This document shows, in pieces, positions 31,932 to 48,199 of a stretch of 64,000 nt of DNA. The notes beneath the pieces were generated by a model. That model saw only the letters and a list, made by a program, of their open reading frames with translations, did not search any database and was not told where the DNA came from. Origin of the DNA: Octopus vulgaris (taxonomy: Eukaryota); the NCBI GenBank assembly GCA_951406725.2, contig OX597838.1, positions 7,440,001 through 7,504,000 of the forward strand. Reading direction: 5' to 3'. The translations under genes and the position numbers were made by a program. Numbering within the stretch: position 1 is the stretch's first letter; the number at the start of each line of letters is the position of its first letter.

Positions 31932-31934
<3 letters not shown>

Positions 31935-32006
31935 TTTTAAATATTTGTTGTGCAAGATTTTTATTGGCTAACCTGGCAAAATGACCATTCCGAAATATAA
32001 CAATAT
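31932..32006. mobile_element. 75-bp miniature relic of the same PLE family (inverted tail + pLTR end) within (TA)n
   Basis: 31932-31962 is the reverse complement of ~39567-39598. 31958-32006 matches ~39494-39542 with 2 mismatches. (TA)n lies on both sides. Confidence 0.85.
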
Positions 32007-36394: not shown

Positions 36395-36470
<76 letters not shown>

Positions 36471-36476
<6 letters not shown>

Positions 36477-36960
36477 ATATTTCGGAATGGTCATATTGCC
36501 AGTTTAGCCAATAAAAACACACGCACTATATATTTGGTGTTATTTTGCTTCAGTGATATTTATTTTTTACATTAATCTTAATCTTATTTCGGCCAAAGTT
36601 CTTTCGTCACACTCCTGTGACCGCATCAGTGGTCCTTTGTTTTCTTCTCACTTACTTGTGTCTCTCCTTACTAACCGTCAGCCATTTTGTATTTCTATTG
36701 TATGTCTTCATTTGCGCATGCTTATATCTCTATGTGCGTCTATGTTTATTTAGTGTGTGGGGGGGGATGTCTGTAATATTTGTATCTTCTGGTTATATAC
36801 ATTCTTGTAATTTGTATTTTGTTTTTGTTGTTGCTTTTGTTCTAATTTTGTTCATGTGTTTACATCCACCCATTATTATCATTACATATGCTTGTATGTA
36901 TAACAACAATATTAGTAATATTAGTAATAATAATAATAAATCTAATCGAGAAAAAAAAAA
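36471..36960 (-). repeat. Inverted pseudo-LTR of the PLE
   Basis: Reverse complement of ~39058-39540 with small slippage differences (9-bp attagtaat duplication, one fewer ttg, G-run length). Joins the ORF copy at an A-run with AA microhomology. Confidence 0.9.
36591..36635 (-). ncRNA. Third (inverted) copy of the pLTR hammerhead-like motif
   Basis: Reverse complement of 39376-39420. Confidence 0.6.
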
Positions 36961-38862
36961 TGATATCCCGGCACTGTATGGACTTCGCAAGGACCATAAA
37001 GGTTTTACTGACCCTATAGCAGGACCACCAACAAGACCAGTCTGTGGAGCGAATATCGCTAGCAATTACAGAATCTCCTACTTCCTCTCAATGATCATAC
37101 GCCCTATAATCAGGATGTCACCTGATGTATGTGACAGCACAGAAGATCTCCTAAGCAGGATCAGTGACTGTAACAAAACTTGTGACTTGACAGGATGTAT
37201 AGTAGGTAGCATGGATGTGGTATCCCTATACCCATCGATTGACGTAGATTTTGCAGTGGAGAAGTGCGTGGAGATGATCAACGAGAGCCAGGTGGAGTTC
37301 TGTAATGTCGACACAGAAGAACTGGGCCTCCTACTTAGACTGACATATAATAGTGAATACTTAGATAAACATAATCTTAGTAGTTTCTGCCCCAGTAGAT
37401 GTTTAAGAGGTAGACCGCCTACAATTACTTCTATGGCTAGGAAGACACATATAGAAAGATGGCGCGGATGGACCAGAGCCATACGGAGCCCCGCAAATGT
37501 CCATCAGGTAAAGAAAATGATCGCACATGCACTAGGAGCTAGTATAAGAGTTACCCTAAAAGGCCACACATTTAAATTTAATAATAAAATATATGCCCAG
37601 GACGAGGGGGCAGCCATCGGTGTTAGTATCGCTGGTGATGTGGCCAACCTCTTCATGGTATGGTGGGACAGAAGGCTTAAAGAATGCCTACTGCAGAAAT
37701 CCGTACTCGTAAACATGTACTCTCGCTATGTTGATGATATCAATATAGTAGTAAAGGCACCCCCACAAGAGAGTACGGTTGATATAGTAATAGAAACTAA
37801 TACTATGGAGAGCATCCAGCAAATAGCTAACTCCATCCACCAGAGTATTAAGGTCACAATAGACTACCCCACTAAACACCCCAACCATAGACTACCAGTA
37901 CTAGACACTGAACTCTGGCTAGAAATTGTGAAAAATAAAACCCAAATCCTTCATTCATACTATGCAAAACCTATGGCCTCAAAATACCTGATCCACCGGA
38001 ACTCAGCCATTGCGGGCAATGCCAAATTCAATATTTTGATGGCAGACCTCGTCAGAATAATGAGAAATGTGTCACGCATGTGCGAGCCTACAGAATTAAA
38101 GAGACACATACAGTATTTCATTCACCGCATGCAGTTCTCAGGTTACAGCCATAAAGAAAGGATCAGAGTATACAAAGGAGCCATGAAGAAATTTGATAAT
38201 ATATTATGTAATGATAGGAATGGGATTTGCCCACTCTATAGGAACAAGTCATGGAACACTATAGAAAGGACAAAAAGAAAATAAGGAAGGCCAACTCTTG
38301 GTATGATAGCCATAAATACCAGAGTGTCATGTTCGTTGACACCACCCCTGGAGGTGAACTAGCGTACCGCTTTAGAAGGACCCTAGATAAACTTAAACTA
38401 AGAATTAAGGTTGTTGAAAAGCCAGGCAACCCTATCAGATCTATAATTGGTAGAACCTATCCTTTTAGTAGAACTCTCTGTACGGATAACTATTGCACTG
38501 TATGTAGATTTAGCCCACAAACGAACTGTAAAGCCAGAAATGTGGTCTATAGTATAAGATGTATAGAGGGACGATGCAGTAACAAGACAGTAACATACGT
38601 AGGGGAAACTGCAAGAAGCATTGGTGAGCGGGTGAATGAACATTGGAGACAACTCAAGGAAGGTAAAAGCTCATCGATTCTGTACCAACACGCCGAACAA
38701 GAACACGGGGGATCAATCAATAACATAGAGATTAAGATATTGTCCACACATAGAACAGATGCAACAATTAGACAAATTACAGAAGCTACACATATAATAG
38801 AAAATAAACCTAGCCTGAATAGAAAACTAGAATGGAGCAATAGCGCACACCACAACATATGA
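36959..38862 (+). pseudogene. 5'-truncated upstream copy of the PLE ORF (RT + GIY-YIG) with a 1-nt frameshift near 38275
   Basis: Matches 41539-43443 except for one A missing in an A-run (ggacaaaaagaaa vs ggacaaaaaagaaa). This splits it into ORFs 36617-38284 and 38251-38862. Confidence 0.9.
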
Positions 38863-39601
38863 CAATAGTGGATCCTGCAAACATAATAAATACACAGGTA
38901 ATTAAAGAAATAGAAATGAATATCTATGTGTATGTATATGTGTATATATATGTATATGTATATGTGTATATATGTGTGTATATATGTATATATATATATG
39001 TATATGTATGTGTATGTATATATATATATATATATGTATATGTATATTCTTTTTTTTTTTTTTTTTTCTCGATTAGATTTATTATTATTATTACTAATAT
39101 TGTTGTTATACATACAAGCATATGTAATGATAATAATGGGTGGATGTAAACACATGAACAAAATTAGAACAAAAGCAACAACAACAAAAACAAAATACAA
39201 ATTACAAGAATGTATATAACCAGAAGATACAAATATTACAGACATCCCCCCCACACACTAAATAAACATAGACGCACATAGAGATATAAGCATGCGCAAA
39301 TGAAGACATACAATAGAAATACAAAATGGCTGACGGTTAGTAAGGAGAGACACAAGTAAGTGAGAAGAAAACAAAGGACCACTGATGCGGTCACAGGAGT
39401 GTGACGAAAGAACTTTGGCCGAAATAAGATTAAGATTAATGTAAAAAATAAATATCACTGAAGCAAAATAACACCAAATATATAGTGCGTGTGTTTTTAT
39501 TGGCTAAACTGGCAATATGACCATTCCGAAATATAACAATATCTGTTTCAACACACGACTTCACATAAAAAATCTTGCACAACAAATATTTAAACGTACT
39601 A
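38863..39601 (+). repeat. Internal PLE 3'UTR/pLTR; also the 5' leader of the intact ORF
   Basis: Direct repeat of 43444-44184. Overlaps the first ~28 codons of the ORF. Confidence 0.9.
39376..39420 (+). ncRNA. Variant minimal type-I hammerhead ribozyme motif in PLE pLTR
   Basis: GGACCA-CTGATGC-G-GTCACA(GGAG)TGTGAC-GAAA-G-AA-C-TT-TGGCC. Stem I GG(A)CCA/TGGCC, 6-bp stem II, core CUGAUGC instead of CUGANGA. Confidence 0.6.
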
Positions 39602-42600
39602 ACGTGAGCCACAGCCAGGCTTGCAAGATGCTGAAGAACACTATATTTTGTTGCCTAAAGAAAACTGTGACAACGCAACAGCTTCGTTTTATAAAACAAT
39701 GTGTCTCGTCCAGGATATGTATCAACAAGGTCACAGCCAACGTTAAACGGCTTGACCTCACTAACGGACAAGCGGAAAGACTAAAAAGGACGCTAATGGT
39801 AAATATTAGAAATAGAATATACAGAGAGCTGAGCGAACAAGAGAAGCGTAAACGTATATTTTTAAAAGAAATTAAAAGTATCACCACACGAAAGGAGAAA
39901 ACCTTAATAATGGATATAATATATGAAGAAAACAGACATGTAATACACCAATGCAATATCCATTTTAAGAGGAAGTTATCGTGGTTGAAACAGAAACGTC
40001 AATATGAGCTCGCAAAGGAAGAAAAGCAGAAGTATCCAGATACAATAAATGGAATTATTATGGAAGATGTGCTACTACCAGAAGAGTTCAATAAAGACAA
40101 TGAAGCGAACATCTATGGGGGAGTAACAACGGACCCAGATGAAATATCGATACTTCAACTACCACCAAAGTATGCAGTGTATAGTAAAGTGAATACCATC
40201 AAATGCCTGTCCGAGATTGAAAAGTCGTTCACAAAAATACGTTGGAATTTAAATAGATACTATGACAACAACACTTGCGACAACAACAACAACGCGAAAA
40301 ACACTAACCGCAGCAACAACAACACAAACAATAATGACCGCAACAATAACAACCGTAGCAACAAAAGCAACACGAACCCTAACAGCGGCAACAACAACAA
40401 CAACACGAACCCTAACAGCGACAACAACAATAACAATAGAAAAAATGTATGCATAGACACAAACAATAGATACAAAAACAAAAACACAAACAGAGAGAGA
40501 AAAATCGTATACAACAGCAACAACAACAACAATTATAGGGAGAACCGACACACAAACACACACACAGATAGCCATAGTCACAAAAACACGAATAAAAGTT
40601 GTGTCATAGGGGTCACGATGGAGAATAAAGTTGAATGCAACAGGTTCCTTGGACAGGGAGTCAGCGGACTTGAAACAGATAACAATATTCATAGGAACAA
40701 AAATAACGACCGCAACAAGGGGATTGACAGGGACCAACAGACAGACATAAAACCCAACACTAATATAAACAACACATACACCAGAAACAGGAACAATGAA
40801 TATATCACTAGCGATGATAGTAATAATGGCAATGGTAGGAATAAAGGTAATAACAATAATAGTGGTAGTAGTAGTGGTGATGGTAACAGTAGAAGTAGTA
40901 ATGAGGATAGTAGTGATAGTTGTGGTGGTAATAGGAATACTAGTAGTAGTAGTAGTAGTGGTAATGGTGATAATAATAATAGGAAGGCTGATGTTGGAAA
41001 CAGTAACGATAATGAAGATAACCCTAGAGAGACCATTGACATGTATACCCATCCCTTTGACACTCAATTCTTCAACGTATGCGACAAAACTTACTGCATG
41101 AACCGAATTTATCCAACAACATTACCCTTCAACAAAAGGGTATACATCCCAAGACGTACTAATGACCACATGGAAGCACAGTTCACTATAGCTAGGACCA
41201 AACTTAGACAGATTTTAGGTTTATACATTAAGAGACAGAGACAGAATAAGACAGATGCCCAACAACTAGGGATTAAACCTGCATGTGGCCTACAGAAGCT
41301 CATTCAGCGCACGAGGAACGGAGAGGTGATATGCCTTCCCACGGATAAGTCAGGCAGGATGTCAATAGACAGCTTACCGAACTACATCCAGGCAATGCAA
41401 CCTCATATCGCCAATACAAAAGTAACAACTGTACAGGCGCATGAGGAGAGAGAAAAGGTCCTCAATGCCCACATGATGATGTGGACAATTGTTCTGGGAC
41501 CTCAGAAACGTACTGCAAAGAATTTCCAAGCCTGGAACAATGATATCCCGGCACTGTATGGACTTCGCAAGGACCATAAAGGTTTTACTGACCCTATAGC
41601 AGGACCACCAACAAGACCAGTCTGTGGAGCGAATATCGCTAGCAATTACAGAATCTCCTACTTCCTCTCAATGATCATACGCCCTATAATCAGGATGTCA
41701 CCTGATGTATGTGACAGCACAGAAGATCTCCTAAGCAGGATCAGTGACTGTAACAAAACTTGTGACTTGACAGGATGTATAGTAGGTAGCATGGATGTGG
41801 TATCCCTATACCCATCGATTGACGTAGATTTTGCAGTGGAGAAGTGCGTGGAGATGATCAACGAGAGCCAGGTGGAGTTCTGTAATGTCGACACAGAAGA
41901 ACTGGGCCTCCTACTTAGACTGACATATAATAGTGAATACTTAGATAAACATAATCTTAGTAGTTTCTGCCCCAGTAGATGTTTAAGAGGTAGACCGCCT
42001 ACAATTACTTCTATGGCTAGGAAGACACATATAGAAAGATGGCGCGGATGGACCAGAGCCATACGGAGCCCCGCAAATGTCCATCAGGTAAAGAAAATGA
42101 TCGCACATGCACTAGGAGCTAGTATAAGAGTTACCCTAAAAGGCCACACATTTAAATTTAATAATAAAATATATGCCCAGGACGAGGGGGCAGCCATCGG
42201 TGTTAGTATCGCTGGTGATGTGGCCAACCTCTTCATGGTATGGTGGGACAGAAGGCTTAAAGAATGCCTACTGCAGAAATCCGTACTCGTAAACATGTAC
42301 TCTCGCTATGTTGATGATATCAATATAGTAGTAAAGGCACCCCCACAAGAGAGTACGGTTGATATAGTAATAGAAACTAATACTATGGAGAGCATCCAGC
42401 AAATAGCTAACTCCATCCACCAGAGTATTAAGGTCACAATAGACTACCCCACTAAACACCCCAACCATAGACTACCAGTACTAGACACTGAACTCTGGCT
42501 AGAAATTGTGAAAAATAAAACCCAAATCCTTCATTCATACTATGCAAAACCTATGGCCTCAAAATACCTGATCCACCGGAACTCAGCCATTGCGGGCAAT

Positions 42601-43443
42601 GCCAAATTCAATATTTTGATGGCAGACCTCGTCAGAATAATGAGAAATGTGTCACGCATGTGCGAGCCTACAGAATTAAAGAGACACATACAGTATTTCA
42701 TTCACCGCATGCAGTTCTCAGGTTACAGCCATAAAGAAAGGATCAGAGTATACAAAGGAGCCATGAAGAAATTTGATAATATATTATGTAATGATAGGAA
42801 TGGGATTTGCCCACTCTATAGGAACAAGTCATGGAACACTATAGAAAGGACAAAAAAGAAAATAAGGAAGGCCAACTCTTGGTATGATAGCCATAAATAC
42901 CAGAGTGTCATGTTCGTTGACACCACCCCTGGAGGTGAACTAGCGTACCGCTTTAGAAGGACCCTAGATAAACTTAAACTAAGAATTAAGGTTGTTGAAA
43001 AGCCAGGCAACCCTATCAGATCTATAATTGGTAGAACCTATCCTTTTAGTAGAACTCTCTGTACGGATAACTATTGCACTGTATGTAGATTTAGCCCACA
43101 AACGAACTGTAAAGCCAGAAATGTGGTCTATAGTATAAGATGTATAGAGGGACGATGCAGTAACAAGACAGTAACATACGTAGGGGAAACTGCAAGAAGC
43201 ATTGGTGAGCGGGTGAATGAACATTGGAGACAACTCAAGGAAGGTAAAAGCTCATCGATTCTGTACCAACACGCCGAACAAGAACACGGGGGATCAATCA
43301 ATAACATAGAGATTAAGATATTGTCCACACATAGAACAGATGCAACAATTAGACAAATTACAGAAGCTACACATATAATAGAAAATAAACCTAGCCTGAA
43401 TAGAAAACTAGAATGGAGCAATAGCGCACACCACAACATATGA
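39517..43443 (+). CDS. PLE polyprotein, 1308 aa: basic N-terminus, Asn/Ser-rich low-complexity region, reverse transcriptase, Cys-rich linker, GIY-YIG endonuclease (Neptune/Nematis-like layout)
   Basis: Uninterrupted ORF. PTDKSG (DKG-type motif), [38 protein letters not shown] (42307-42318), LPVLDTEL. Linker [10 protein letters not shown]. Endonuclease [31 protein letters not shown]. Confidence 0.95.
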
Positions 43444-44184
43444 CAATAGTGGATCCTGCAAACATAATAAATACACAGGTAATTAAAGAAATAGAAATGA
43501 ATATCTATGTGTATGTATATGTGTATATATATGTATATGTATATGTGTATATATGTGTGTATATATGTATATATATATATGTATATGTATGTGTATGTAT
43601 ATATATATATATATATGTATATGTATATTCTTTTTTTTTTTTTTTTTTTTCTCGATTAGATTTATTATTATTATTACTAATATTGTTGTTATACATACAA
43701 GCATATGTAATGATAATAATGGGTGGATGTAAACACATGAACAAAATTAGAACAAAAGCAACAACAACAAAAACAAAATACAAATTACAAGAATGTATAT
43801 AACCAGAAGATACAAATATTACAGACATCCCCCCCACACACTAAATAAACATAGACGCACATAGAGATATAAGCATGCGCAAATGAAGACATACAATAGA
43901 AATACAAAATGGCTGACGGTTAGTAAGGAGAGACACAAGTAAGTGAGAAGAAAACAAAGGACCACTGATGCGGTCACAGGAGTGTGACGAAAGAACTTTG
44001 GCCGAAATAAGATTAAGATTAATGTAAAAAATAAATATCACTGAAGCAAAATAACACCAAATATATAGTGCGTGTGTTTTTATTGGCTAAACTGGCAATA
44101 TGACCATTCCGAAATATAACAATATCTGTTTCAACACACGACTTCACATAAAAAATCTTGCACAACAAATATTTAAACGTACTA
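43444..44184 (+). repeat. Terminal PLE 3'UTR/pLTR with ~60-nt tail
   Basis: Matches 38863-39601 apart from poly-T length. Ends at ...tttaaacgtact, then (TA)n. Confidence 0.9.
43959..44003 (+). ncRNA. Second copy of the pLTR hammerhead-like motif
   Basis: Identical to 39376-39420. Confidence 0.6.
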
Positions 44185-44203
44185 TATATATATATATATA
44201 TAT

Positions 44204-44558
44204 AAGTCAGGGAAGAAAACGGAGAAGATATTTAATTGACAAACATCAGTCAGACATATTTGTTAGTTACAATGATAGGAGTAAATAAATACAAGTCTAC
44301 TCTTACAGTTGTTTCTACTTTGGGAGGTGCAGCGTGATACAATTGACACATCATACAAAAATTATACAAAACTTGAATCCGAGTATGTATAATTTTTGTA
44401 ATACGTGTTGGGGTTGACTTTGGCATGCTGGACTCCAAAGCAGAAAAAACTGTAAGAGCAGAATTGTATTTATATATTTACTCTTATTACTGGAATTAAT
44501 AATTAGATCTTGCTGATGTTTGTCAATTAAGTATCGTCTCCAATTTGTTCCTTGCCTA
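44204..44558. repeat. ~350-bp imperfect palindrome (foldback) directly after the PLE's right (TA)n flank
   Basis: Arms pair: ttaattgacaaacatcag / ctgatgtttgtcaattaa, tcttacagtt / aactgtaaga, tacaaaaattataca / tgtataatttttgta. Centre near 44377. Confidence 0.85.
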
Positions 44559-44934
44559 ATAAATTCATATATGCGTATATATATACAATCAAAATAAGCA
44601 AGAAGGATATCCAAAGGTAGTGTAGTACAATCGTTTCATGCTACAGTTGCAGATATTGCTTCAATGCGAGACTGAACCAAAGTCTACAGAATTTGTAACC
44701 AAGCTTCTTTGTAACTCAGCCCCACCAGCACCAATCCAGAGAGAAGGAGTAAGGGAGAGAGAGAGACACGGAGACAGAGAGAGAGAGACACGGAGACAGA
44801 GAGAGACAGACAGACATATAGACAGAAGGATGATAGAAACATATAATTGAAAACACTCATGTTTTGGGGGAGACAAAAACAAATCGGGGTAAATGAAGTT
44901 GAATTTGTAACGAGTAGCATTTATTTAAAATATG

Positions 44935-45311
44935 TGGAGACAGAATGGCCCGGTGGTTAGTGCAGCGGACTCACGGTCGTGAGATAATTATTTCGATTCC
45001 CAGACCGGGCATTGTTAGTGTTTATTGAGCGAACATATCTAAAGTTCCACGAGGCTTCGGCAGGGGGTGGAGACGAATCATGCTGTTGTCTTTCACCACA
45101 ACTTTCACACTTCCTTCCTGTTTCTGTTCTACCTGTATTTCAAAGGGGTCAGCCTTGTCACACTCTGCGTCACGCTGAATCTCCCCCGAGCACCACGCTA
45201 AGGGTACACGCGTCAGCGGTATACTCAGCCACTTACAAGTTAATTTGACAAGCAGGCTGTTCCGTTGATCGGATCAACTGGAACTCTTGTCGTCCTAACC
45301 GATGGAGTGCC
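44935..45311 (+). mobile_element. tRNA-derived SINE family C/C'
   Basis: tggcccggtggttag...ttcgattcccagaccgggc head. 3' body (tacctgtatttcaaagg, agccttgtcacac, gatggagtgcca) is shared with 20661-20909. Confidence 0.75.
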
Positions 45312-45571
45312 ACGAATTTAGAAGACGTGAAGAACCAAGAAGTATGATCCTTTTATTTCACATGCTTTCGCACTGCCGGAGTGCTCGTCTGCATACTTGT
45401 GGATGCGGAAATTCCAATGTAATACCGACTTTCAAGCAGAACCTCTGCGTAATGGCGAGATTGGAGTTGAAATGGAAAACCCTGAACCAGGATTACCACA
45501 TTTGCACACCACTTGTATGTTTAAGTACATACAATATTATGCCGTCGACAAGGGACTCGACGGGAAATCAC

Positions 45572-47392: not shown

Positions 47393-47789
47393 AGATATGT
47401 AAGACATCATTTTTTATCGATGAATAACGGGGAGAGTGTTTTTGGACCATTTCTTCGTCTATTAAAGAGAAACACAATATTTTCTGTTTTATTCTTTACA
47501 CTTGGCAATAGAAATAAACTTCAGTATTTTGCTATTGTTTCCCGGTTAAGAAACTGCATTTTTTGTTTTTTATAGAACCTCTATTCGTATTACTGTAATT
47601 CACTTACCTGTTGATGAGTTACCTCGCAATGGACCGGTGTCTCGTTCAACGAGAATGTTGTAATCTCTGTCACGTAGGCATTTTGGAAACCGCGTAACCG
47701 TGGCTATGAGTCCTAACGCTCGGGGCAATAATGTCCAGACTTCCAGTAAATTTTTTTTTTAAATTTACTAGTGTCCCGATTACACCGAT

Positions 47790-48199
47790 TTCTTTACTAC
47801 TCACAAGGTGCTAAACAGAGAGGACAAACAAGGACAGACAAACGGATTAAGTCGATTACATTGACACCAGTGCGTAACTGGTACTTACTTTATCGACCCC
47901 GAAAGGATGAAAAGAAAAGTCGACATCGACAGAATTCGAACTCAGAACGTTACGGCAGACGAAATACCTATTTCTTTACTACCCACAAGGGGCTAAACAC
48001 AGAGAGGACAAACAAGGACAGACAAACGGATTAAGTCGATTACATTGACACCAGTGCGTAACTGGTACTTACTTTATCGACTTCGAAAGAATGAAAGGCA
48101 AAGTCGACATCGACAGAATTTGAATTGAGAACGTAACGGCAGACGAAATACGGCTACACATTTCGCCCGGCGTGCTAACGTTTCTGCCAGCTCGCCGCC
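47790..48199 (-). mobile_element. SINE family B with an internal ~180-bp tandem duplication
   Basis: 47790-47968 is repeated at 47969-48147. A single head at 48160-48199. Confidence 0.85.

Follow-up and report, generated by a model that had tools for sequence, protein, structure and literature searches.

A young Penelope-like retroelement of Octopus vulgaris whose insertions pair one short with one tailed end and whose reverse transcriptase carries a telomerase-sized fingers insertion

The stretch analyzed here (the window) comprises 64,000 nucleotides of the Octopus vulgaris genome (assembly GCA_951406725.2, contig OX597838.1, positions 7,440,001 to 7,504,000) and contains, at window positions 36469 to 44184, a very young and intact member of a high-copy family of Penelope-like retroelements (PLEs), which encodes a reverse transcriptase (RT) and a GIY-YIG endonuclease (EN). 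All 109 two-armed insertions of this family that we paired combine one short end with one tailed end, and the RT carries between motifs A and B' an insertion of about 70 amino acids (aa) that is common to about 200 homologues. An earlier note on this DNA overlooked both properties, though they carry the interest: the element is real, young and of a known kind, and what that note held to be new is largely known, whereas the pairing rule and the fingers insertion go further. We tentatively suggest, as a possibility that we rate somewhat below even, that the element belongs to an unnamed multi-phylum lineage with a telomerase-sized insertion and that the octopus insertions were all made by an asymmetric pair of RTs starting at two fixed sites on one donor's transcript.

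In two-armed insertions both arms copy identical sequence upstream of position +26 and are joined head to head (positions are counted from the ATG of the open reading frame [ORF], +1 being 39517 and, one 4583-nt unit later, 44100). Arm ends fell into two classes: among 210 ends, internal tandem joints counted, 103 lay at +17 to +26 (100 of them at +26) and 106 at +70 to +85, the remaining one, at +54, coming from a broken alignment. Across C1, 1 to 152 Mb, we clustered every listed end, 86 of them short and 124 tail-bearing, and like pairs would have come up in either list; 48 of 48 tail-out pairs were short+tailed, with 0 short+short and 0 tail+tail pairs (P ~4e-15 versus 0.5), while 36 short and 73 tailed ends were unpaired and 2 clusters were of other kinds. 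Inspection of 40 of these 109 single ends showed that 15 hid an opposite arm, which was always of the other class. The rule was likewise obeyed in 34 of 34 two-armed loci among 36 young loci picked for likeness to the window element (one overlaps the 48 C1 pairs), in 9 more pairs from 11 further places and in a second insert in L165, which gives the total of 109 of 109 when 2 others and a 75-bp insertion in the window are included. A choice of ends by the best TA microhomology was rejected, since ATATA at +15 to +19 and ATAT at +70 to +73 are seldom used as ends; base pairing would thus provide just a fine adjustment of the start. No description of a strict one-of-each pairing was found in the literature that we searched, a search whose scope did not extend to Repbase, Dfam and the PLE reviews of 2005-2006, which may hold it.

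The arms of one insertion resemble each other more closely than they resemble other insertions. They differed at 68 of 55,994 columns (0.12%), compared with 0.27% between insertions of the 36 young loci, and there were 68 instances of a minor variant present in both arms, of which 17 were private to the insertion (these are pair counts, some repeated). In C1, 50 of 11,152 columns differed between arms versus 1.1% between insertions, and arms were concordant at 35 of 37 polymorphic comparisons. Low divergence together with shared private variants argues that both arms stem from one donor, whether through a single RNA, through sister RNAs, or by snap-back or conversion. The inverted joints mostly show an overlap of 1 to 7 nt, and arm ends correlate (rho 0.45). 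Inner ends were within 3 nt of each other in 7 of 87 cases, with 0.6 expected; in the 34 long young loci alone there was 1 such case, an excess that was not significant. Inner ends also cluster, with 21 of 129 at -176 to -206 and 14 of 129 at -82 to -106 versus 1 at -107 to -134 (post hoc test); the former cluster may mark the transcript start, and the latter adjoins a predicted hammerhead cut at -102/-101. Of the 36 young loci, 34 showed the two-armed layout, with differing breakpoints, and 10 had seamless tandems; a full tandem can sit on either arm, and the longer arm was the one with the short end in 26 of 53 C1 insertions.

The TA-preferring insertion claimed in the earlier note was upheld when the flanks of other copies were tabulated. 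A (TA)5 run was present within 110 nt of 26 of 30 position-sampled family ends, the shares among random positions in the window and among flank bins being 22% and 17 of 240, and the association is above chance despite the abundance of TA tracts, which make up 7.3% of the window outside the element. One copy (C23) is flanked by (TAT)n on both sides and another (C3a) sits in (AATAT)n. Target site duplications (TSDs) of 28 and 12 nt, which include bases matching the element ends, were found at two non-TA insertions, and no clear TSD was found at two other non-TA sites. TA tracts look to predate insertion. By itself the preference is no news, and as a claim of novelty it falls: (TA)n targeting has been described for Neptune, Naiad and Hydra elements (PMC8557442). 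A second young PLE family of the octopus (L169-L198 in G000, e.g., L173), unrelated to the main one, likewise runs into (TA)n at most of the 17 loci read out of 30; it is Neptune-like, with DKG, a long linker, 94 to 100% protein identity and open ORFs, and is without the fingers insertion.

The fingers insertion (41869 to 42081, + strand) stands where telomerase reverse transcriptase (TERT) has its insertion-in-fingers domain (IFD). The spacing from motif A to motif B' is 128 aa in the octopus RT and 125 to 149 aa in 133 of 135 measurable proteins (from 176 homologues, query and near copies included), the two exceptions being distant PLE RTs with 57 and 74 aa. Further representatives had 117 to 161 aa in 71 of 72 measurable cases (69 of 141 were not measurable). 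Hand counts in Fig. S1 of PMC8557442 gave 57 to 60 aa for Penelope, Neptune and Nematis (57 for DreriNep1 and 60 for C_remanei), 84 for one Naiad, 102 to 119 for two Chlamys, 115 for human TERT and 149 for Tetrahymena TERT; the Neptune-like octopus family has 56. Invariant or near-invariant residues occur in the insertion (E795-GL, C818-P-x-R, G825-xx-P and R841-W-xx-W), which is mainly helical in the model and, when folded alone, has a predicted local distance difference test score (pLDDT) of 84. The insertion alone gave no Foldseek match at E <= 0.001, the best Z among 48,161 chains being 4.2; from such weak matches neither a new fold nor unlikeness to the TERT IFD follows. Named hosts with a measured insertion belong to three phyla: the octopus, a sea cucumber (Holothuria leucospilota) and a jellyfish (Sanderia malayensis). 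Matches to the EN region name Nucella lapillus and Oculina patagonica, in which the insertion is not measurable, and one ctenophore record is present in an Atlas cluster. Four relatives of 1870 to 2160 aa (P0053, P0063, P0076 and P0081) have the same fingers insertion.

A quick tree placed 22 insertion-bearing RTs apart from 3 insertion-less PLE RTs; it holds no named references, and a "new lineage" therefore rests on motifs. Of 135 proteins examined, 97 showed the DKS motif or a variant of it (DKS in 86, DKT in 9 and DKN in 2), and the octopus protein has RWN. On these motifs the RT would define a distinct PLE lineage with a C-terminal nuclease and an approximately 70-aa fingers insertion, possibly unnamed. 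Canonical EN-containing (EN+) PLEs with a C-terminal EN are stated to have no IFD, and IFD-like regions occur sporadically in Coprina (PMC8557442), which makes an independent gain of the insertion plausible. No insertion-bearing group with a C-terminal nuclease was described in the literature searched, within the same scope as above (Repbase, Dfam and the 2005-2006 reviews outside it), and such a lineage is easily overlooked, its proteins being nearly invisible to Pfam.

The octopus element is an EN+ PLE, with a single RT plus GIY-YIG ORF, partial-tandem pseudo long terminal repeats (pLTRs), an inverted 5' arm, a tail and a CCHH motif, and it departs from Penelope/Poseidon, Neptune, Hydra and Naiad/Chlamys in features that define them. 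By eye, against Figs. S2 and S7 of PMC8557442, it resembles Nematis in its C-terminal GIY-YIG with CCHH, its short CX2-5CxxC linker directly before GIY, HAxxxHG, T-x-R-x-x-x-EA-x-x-I and the extra residues between HK and RP of RT motifs 1 and 2. It differs from Nematis in having DKS rather than DKG/DKR, KDHK rather than KTHK and an A-B' spacing of 128 rather than about 60 aa, and in an ORF of about 1050 aa even without its Asn-rich insert. With Hydra elements it shares (TA)n targets, KDHK and marine invertebrate hosts; its DKS and RWN come near to their DKT and RWK, and its pLTR carries a hammerhead-like motif where theirs has a hammerhead. Hydra elements, however, are described as <3 kb long, without CCHH or an IFD, with a CxCX5C linker and with a motif B that is divergent (PMC8557442), whereas in the octopus element CCHH is present, QxxGxAIG is canonical, the linker is CX4CX2C and the unit measures 4.6 kb. 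Neptune elements have a segment of about 25 residues between the CX2-5CxxC linker and GIY, DKG and no IFD, unlike the octopus element with its short linker finger, DKS and 128-aa spacing, and Penelope/Poseidon elements have no Zn-finger linker before the EN, where the octopus element has CTDNYCTVC. The Poseidon element PAc of Anolis carolinensis is similar in its RT starts inside the 5' ORF that bound an optional tail, as the putative octopus starts do, its AT-rich targets, its upstream hammerhead and its partial tandems; it belongs to another clade without the linker finger, and strict one-of-each pairing is unreported in the part of PMC11167929 available. Naiad/Chlamys and TERT have an insertion at the same A-B' place, and Naiad has a (TA)n bias, but in Naiad/Chlamys the EN is N-terminal, a CxC motif is present, the IFD measures 20 to 40 aa and a hammerhead is mostly absent, whereas the octopus EN is C-terminal. 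At about 70 aa the octopus insertion is TERT-like in position and length, homology to the TERT IFD not being established. Penelopes of Adineta vaga likewise have in-frame Asn-rich inserts, hundreds of residues long, ORFs of about 1,300 aa and a tail on one inverted pLTR, but with the inserts placed inside the RT or between it and the EN, whereas that of the octopus is N-terminal to the RT (PMC3846280).

The pairing rule would be produced by twin priming, which we consider the probable mechanism, if by no wide measure. The element's nuclease would nick both strands of a (TA)n tract, and each freed 3' end would prime reverse transcription at its own fixed site on the RNA of one donor, at about +26 and at +82/+85 of the ORF; these two sites would be used once each per event, by what we infer to be a non-equivalent pair of RT subunits, with the register set by a few bases of TA-type microhomology. 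The two cDNAs would then be joined head to head at short stretches of microhomology; for seamless tandems, synthesis would run across the terminally redundant pLTR and on into another unit (on tandem or circular RNA, or by a template jump). In vitro, PAc nicks and extends both strands and starts at two tail-bounding sites, and a dimer is predicted for it (PMC11167929). Several points weigh against twin priming in the octopus. The insertion data are all from one assembly, and the mechanism is read from sequence. Shared arm variants fit snap-back or gene conversion too, one RNA and one donor locus being indistinguishable, and two RTs queued on one RNA would, in the simplest case, not make either arm the longer one equally often (50:50). 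The PAc initiation site is non-homologous to the cut DNA (PMC11167929), unlike the octopus ends, which overlap the target by 2 to 4 nt. L154, at a non-TA site, has ends at -16 and +84, of neither class, and is excluded from the 109, and at least 2 of the 36 young loci plus several C1 loci are one-armed. The main rival is a single priming at the tail site followed by snap-back to +26, the product being cut or annealed to the other TA end and later subject to central palindrome deletions that make the arms unequal. This accounts for the pairing rule equally well and covers the private shared variants and the equal inner ends (7 of 87) with one RT; for rotifer Penelopes, palindromes at junctions have led to a proposal of self-priming (PMC3846280), and EN-mediated resolution has been given as the source of the tail (PMC8557442). 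We nevertheless regard it as rather unlikely here, for the short-end arm is the longer one in 26 of 53 C1 insertions and at times bears a whole extra unit (C3b, C9, C22, C1c and L126), so that snap-back needs large deletions limited to the first arm; moreover, there are tiny inserts that consist of a short end alone and are flanked by TA on either side (L130, L136, L146 and L148), and in PAc both tail-bounding sites are true RT starts (PMC11167929).

It is also conceivable that the RT itself adds (TA)n in the manner of telomerase from an internal TA template, the tracts then being products and not targets. The RT is telomerase-like with a TERT-sized insertion, the ends fall on TA/ATAT within the RNA, and the window site, where contigs broke at repeats, yielded no empty allele; however, insertions in (TAT)n and (AATAT)n retain the local repeat type without added (TA)n, non-TA sites show plain TSDs, and the left tract in the window belongs to a (CT)n(TA)n compound, all of which makes this reading very improbable. 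Scarcely credible is an assembly artefact as the source of the tandem or inversion at the window locus: its units differ just in homopolymer lengths and no locus-spanning read was seen, but the same layout recurs with other breakpoints at nearly all young loci, seamless tandems among them, and its ends obey the family rule. As to lineage, the element may instead be an ordinary Nematis- or Hydra-related family that is already curated, the insertion an add-on without mechanistic weight and the pairing rule the published one-end tail. The EN and short CX4CX2C linker are indeed Nematis-like and DKS/KDHK/RW Hydra-like, and 31 recently active PLE families have been reported in O. vulgaris (PMC13282606, in the available part of which no clade names were found). 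Against this stand the recurrence of the insertion in nearly every measurable homologue, its invariant residues and high-confidence fold, and the Nematis and Hydra references, which are without it; we hold this reading to be possible, with the odds leaning to the contrary. It concerns novelty and is compatible with either priming mechanism.

The origin of the tandem and inverted structures of PLEs and of their one-sided tails has been named an open question (PMC8557442), which has been answered in part in vitro (PMC11167929). Thousands of readable ends and a rule without exception in 109 insertions narrow the mechanism to two testable models, with RNA positions. An asymmetric RT pair, if true, would be a general mechanism for the inverted pLTRs and tails of PLEs, and insertion-bearing PLEs with a C-terminal nuclease, if true, would break the stated no-IFD rule and bear on the relationship between PLE and telomerase RTs.

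At the window locus all parts described in the earlier note are present. The left (TA)n target tract (36428 to 36472) is preceded by (CT)17 and followed by the inverted arm (36469 to 36960, - strand), a pLTR from the putative short start site at +26 back to a poly-U tract at -459, which meets the direct arm via a short A-run overlap. The direct arm begins with a 5'-truncated tandem unit (36956 to 39601, + strand) that comprises RT motifs 1 to E, thumb, EN, 3' untranslated region and pLTR and continues seamlessly into the full unit. Downstream of the ORF of the latter are a pLTR (43629 to 44125, + strand) with poly-U, a second hammerhead-like copy (43959 to 44003) and the first 26 nt of the ORF, then the 59-nt tail (+27 to +85; 44126 to 44184, + strand), which forms the long end of the insertion, and the right (TA)n target tract (44183 to 44204). 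Aligned over 2649 columns, the partial copy 36956 to 39601 and its counterpart 41536 to 44184 are 99.85% identical, with a single mismatch, at the edge, and 2 gaps, and with 0 substitutions over 2354 columns compared. At 38271 an A-run differs by 1 nt, the first gap, and this frameshift splits the partial copy into two ORFs; the second gap is in the length of a poly-T. In reverse complement the inverted pLTR matches 39058 to 39542 with 0 mismatches and 3 gaps, and 0 substitutions were found in 353 columns against the direct pLTRs. The earlier note gave homopolymer lengths as the only differences, by eye, of the 2.6-kb partial copy; as a small correction, the gaps of the inverted pLTR are one 9-nt repeat unit, one 3-nt repeat unit and one C, and not homopolymers alone. 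The second two-armed insertion of the family, of 75 bp (31932 to 32006), lies in (TA)n 4.5 kb to the left of the main element and consists of an inverted tailed arm and a direct short arm.

The ORF (39517 to 43443, + strand) is stop-free and encodes 1308 aa with an N-terminal helical region, an Asn-rich insert, a telomerase-like RT, a Zn-finger linker and GIY-YIG. A protein labelled Octopus vulgaris (P0002) is 99% identical to it. Its reported YVDD and GIY-YIG motifs were confirmed, YVDD at Y931-D934 and the nuclease residues as VVY..YVG, R1232, E1283 and N1295. The CX4CX2C linker finger (CTDNYCTVC) directly precedes the GIY-YIG (together 43060 to 43407, + strand), in which a CCHH motif (C1209, C1214, H1236 and H1252) is conserved. 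Pfam gave no family for the full ORF and, for the RT-EN part, RVT_1 below the cut-off; sequence searches of the Protein Data Bank gave just weak RT motif matches. An AlphaFold model of the last 741 aa had a mean pLDDT of 88, its best structural matches being TERTs (Z 15.7, root mean square deviation [rmsd] 4.7, 292 residues) and that of the EN being I-TevI (Z 10.9, rmsd 2.1, 88 residues). The unusual length claimed as a novelty is explained by an Asn/Ser-rich low-complexity insert (aa 246 to 505, 260 aa, 33% Asn; 40252 to 41031, + strand), at a site of freely varying length, where some relatives have next to no residues and others up to about 250 unrelated ones: full-length relatives that lack the insert have 1045 to 1090 aa, and the octopus ORF minus the insert has about 1050. 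A new domain as the source of the extra length was accordingly rejected, and Asn-rich inserts giving a 1,309-aa Penelope ORF have been published for Adineta vaga (PMC3846280).

A minimal hammerhead-like motif is present in the upstream pLTR (39376 to 39420, + strand; by-eye reading, fold and variants), with CUGAUG-C-G, a 6-bp stem II and GAAA when compared with published minimal features (PMC4209133); core position 9 is C, not A, and loop 3 is non-palindromic. The predicted cut, after 39415, falls at a U/C polymorphic site. An Rfam search returned no hammerhead, just sub-threshold microsatellite matches. The region +1 to +90 folds no better than shuffles (z +0.8 and +1.05), and thus no PAc-like stem-loop is seen. 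CUGANGA cores were found in five relatives (L229, L233, L239, L255 and L260), and metagenome relatives, of which 33 of 49 loci were screened, showed terminally redundant units, canonical minimal hammerheads at 5 loci and one TA end. Around the second copy (43850 to 44150), pLTR-related sequence at 90% likeness had a very high summed depth in four runs, with recurrent variants that include U to C at the predicted cut site, which points to larger, older subfamilies.

The very young age that had been claimed for the family holds for the 36 young loci, in view of their low divergence; 8 of them have intact ORFs (1307 to 1309 aa). At a substitution rate of 0.0036 per million years, taken from another octopus (PMC13282606), the divergence of 0.12% between arms would put the mean age at about 0.17 million years, a value that includes copying and assembly errors. 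The young loci come from a DNA search in which 40 of 2488 candidates were scored; all were ~100% identical, and they collapse to 36 insertions, the window included. Position-sampled C1 copies go down to about 90% identity, so that the family history is longer than the young loci imply. A 24-mer spanning the ATG had 3218 exact matches, and exact end patterns were counted 2427 times for +26 into TA, 1727 for +82 into TA and 255 for +85 into TA, with 2065 for read-through past +26 and 34 for read-through into the ORF. Contigs from four runs guessed to be RNA lie on the ORF (presence only), those of one run from 39742 onward with few differences; 129 bases (39610 to 39738) are without cover in these runs, and for the right flank no RNA run was listed. 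Shared variants were 6 synonymous versus 8 non-synonymous, counts that are uninformative on selection. In an empty-site check on 43660 to 45500, contigs of four runs broke at repeats and gave no joint or loose end deciding presence or absence. One insertion (G000:C19:14371126-14386900; L007, L029, L006 and L034) comprises nearly three seamless tandem units, which differ from one another by 4 to 7 substitutions each. An O. vulgaris protein annotated as "dynein regulatory complex subunit 6-like" (P0036) matched 21% of the RT-EN query at 98% and is a candidate element fragment in a gene model, by exonisation or misannotation. Adjoining the right side of the element, 44205 to 44586 is an old stretch of 74% self-complementarity with TA runs at its borders, for which a miniature inverted-repeat transposable element and a decayed two-armed insertion of another family are candidates, and SINE-like repeats of very high copy number are found at 44960 to 45330 and 47784 to 48151.

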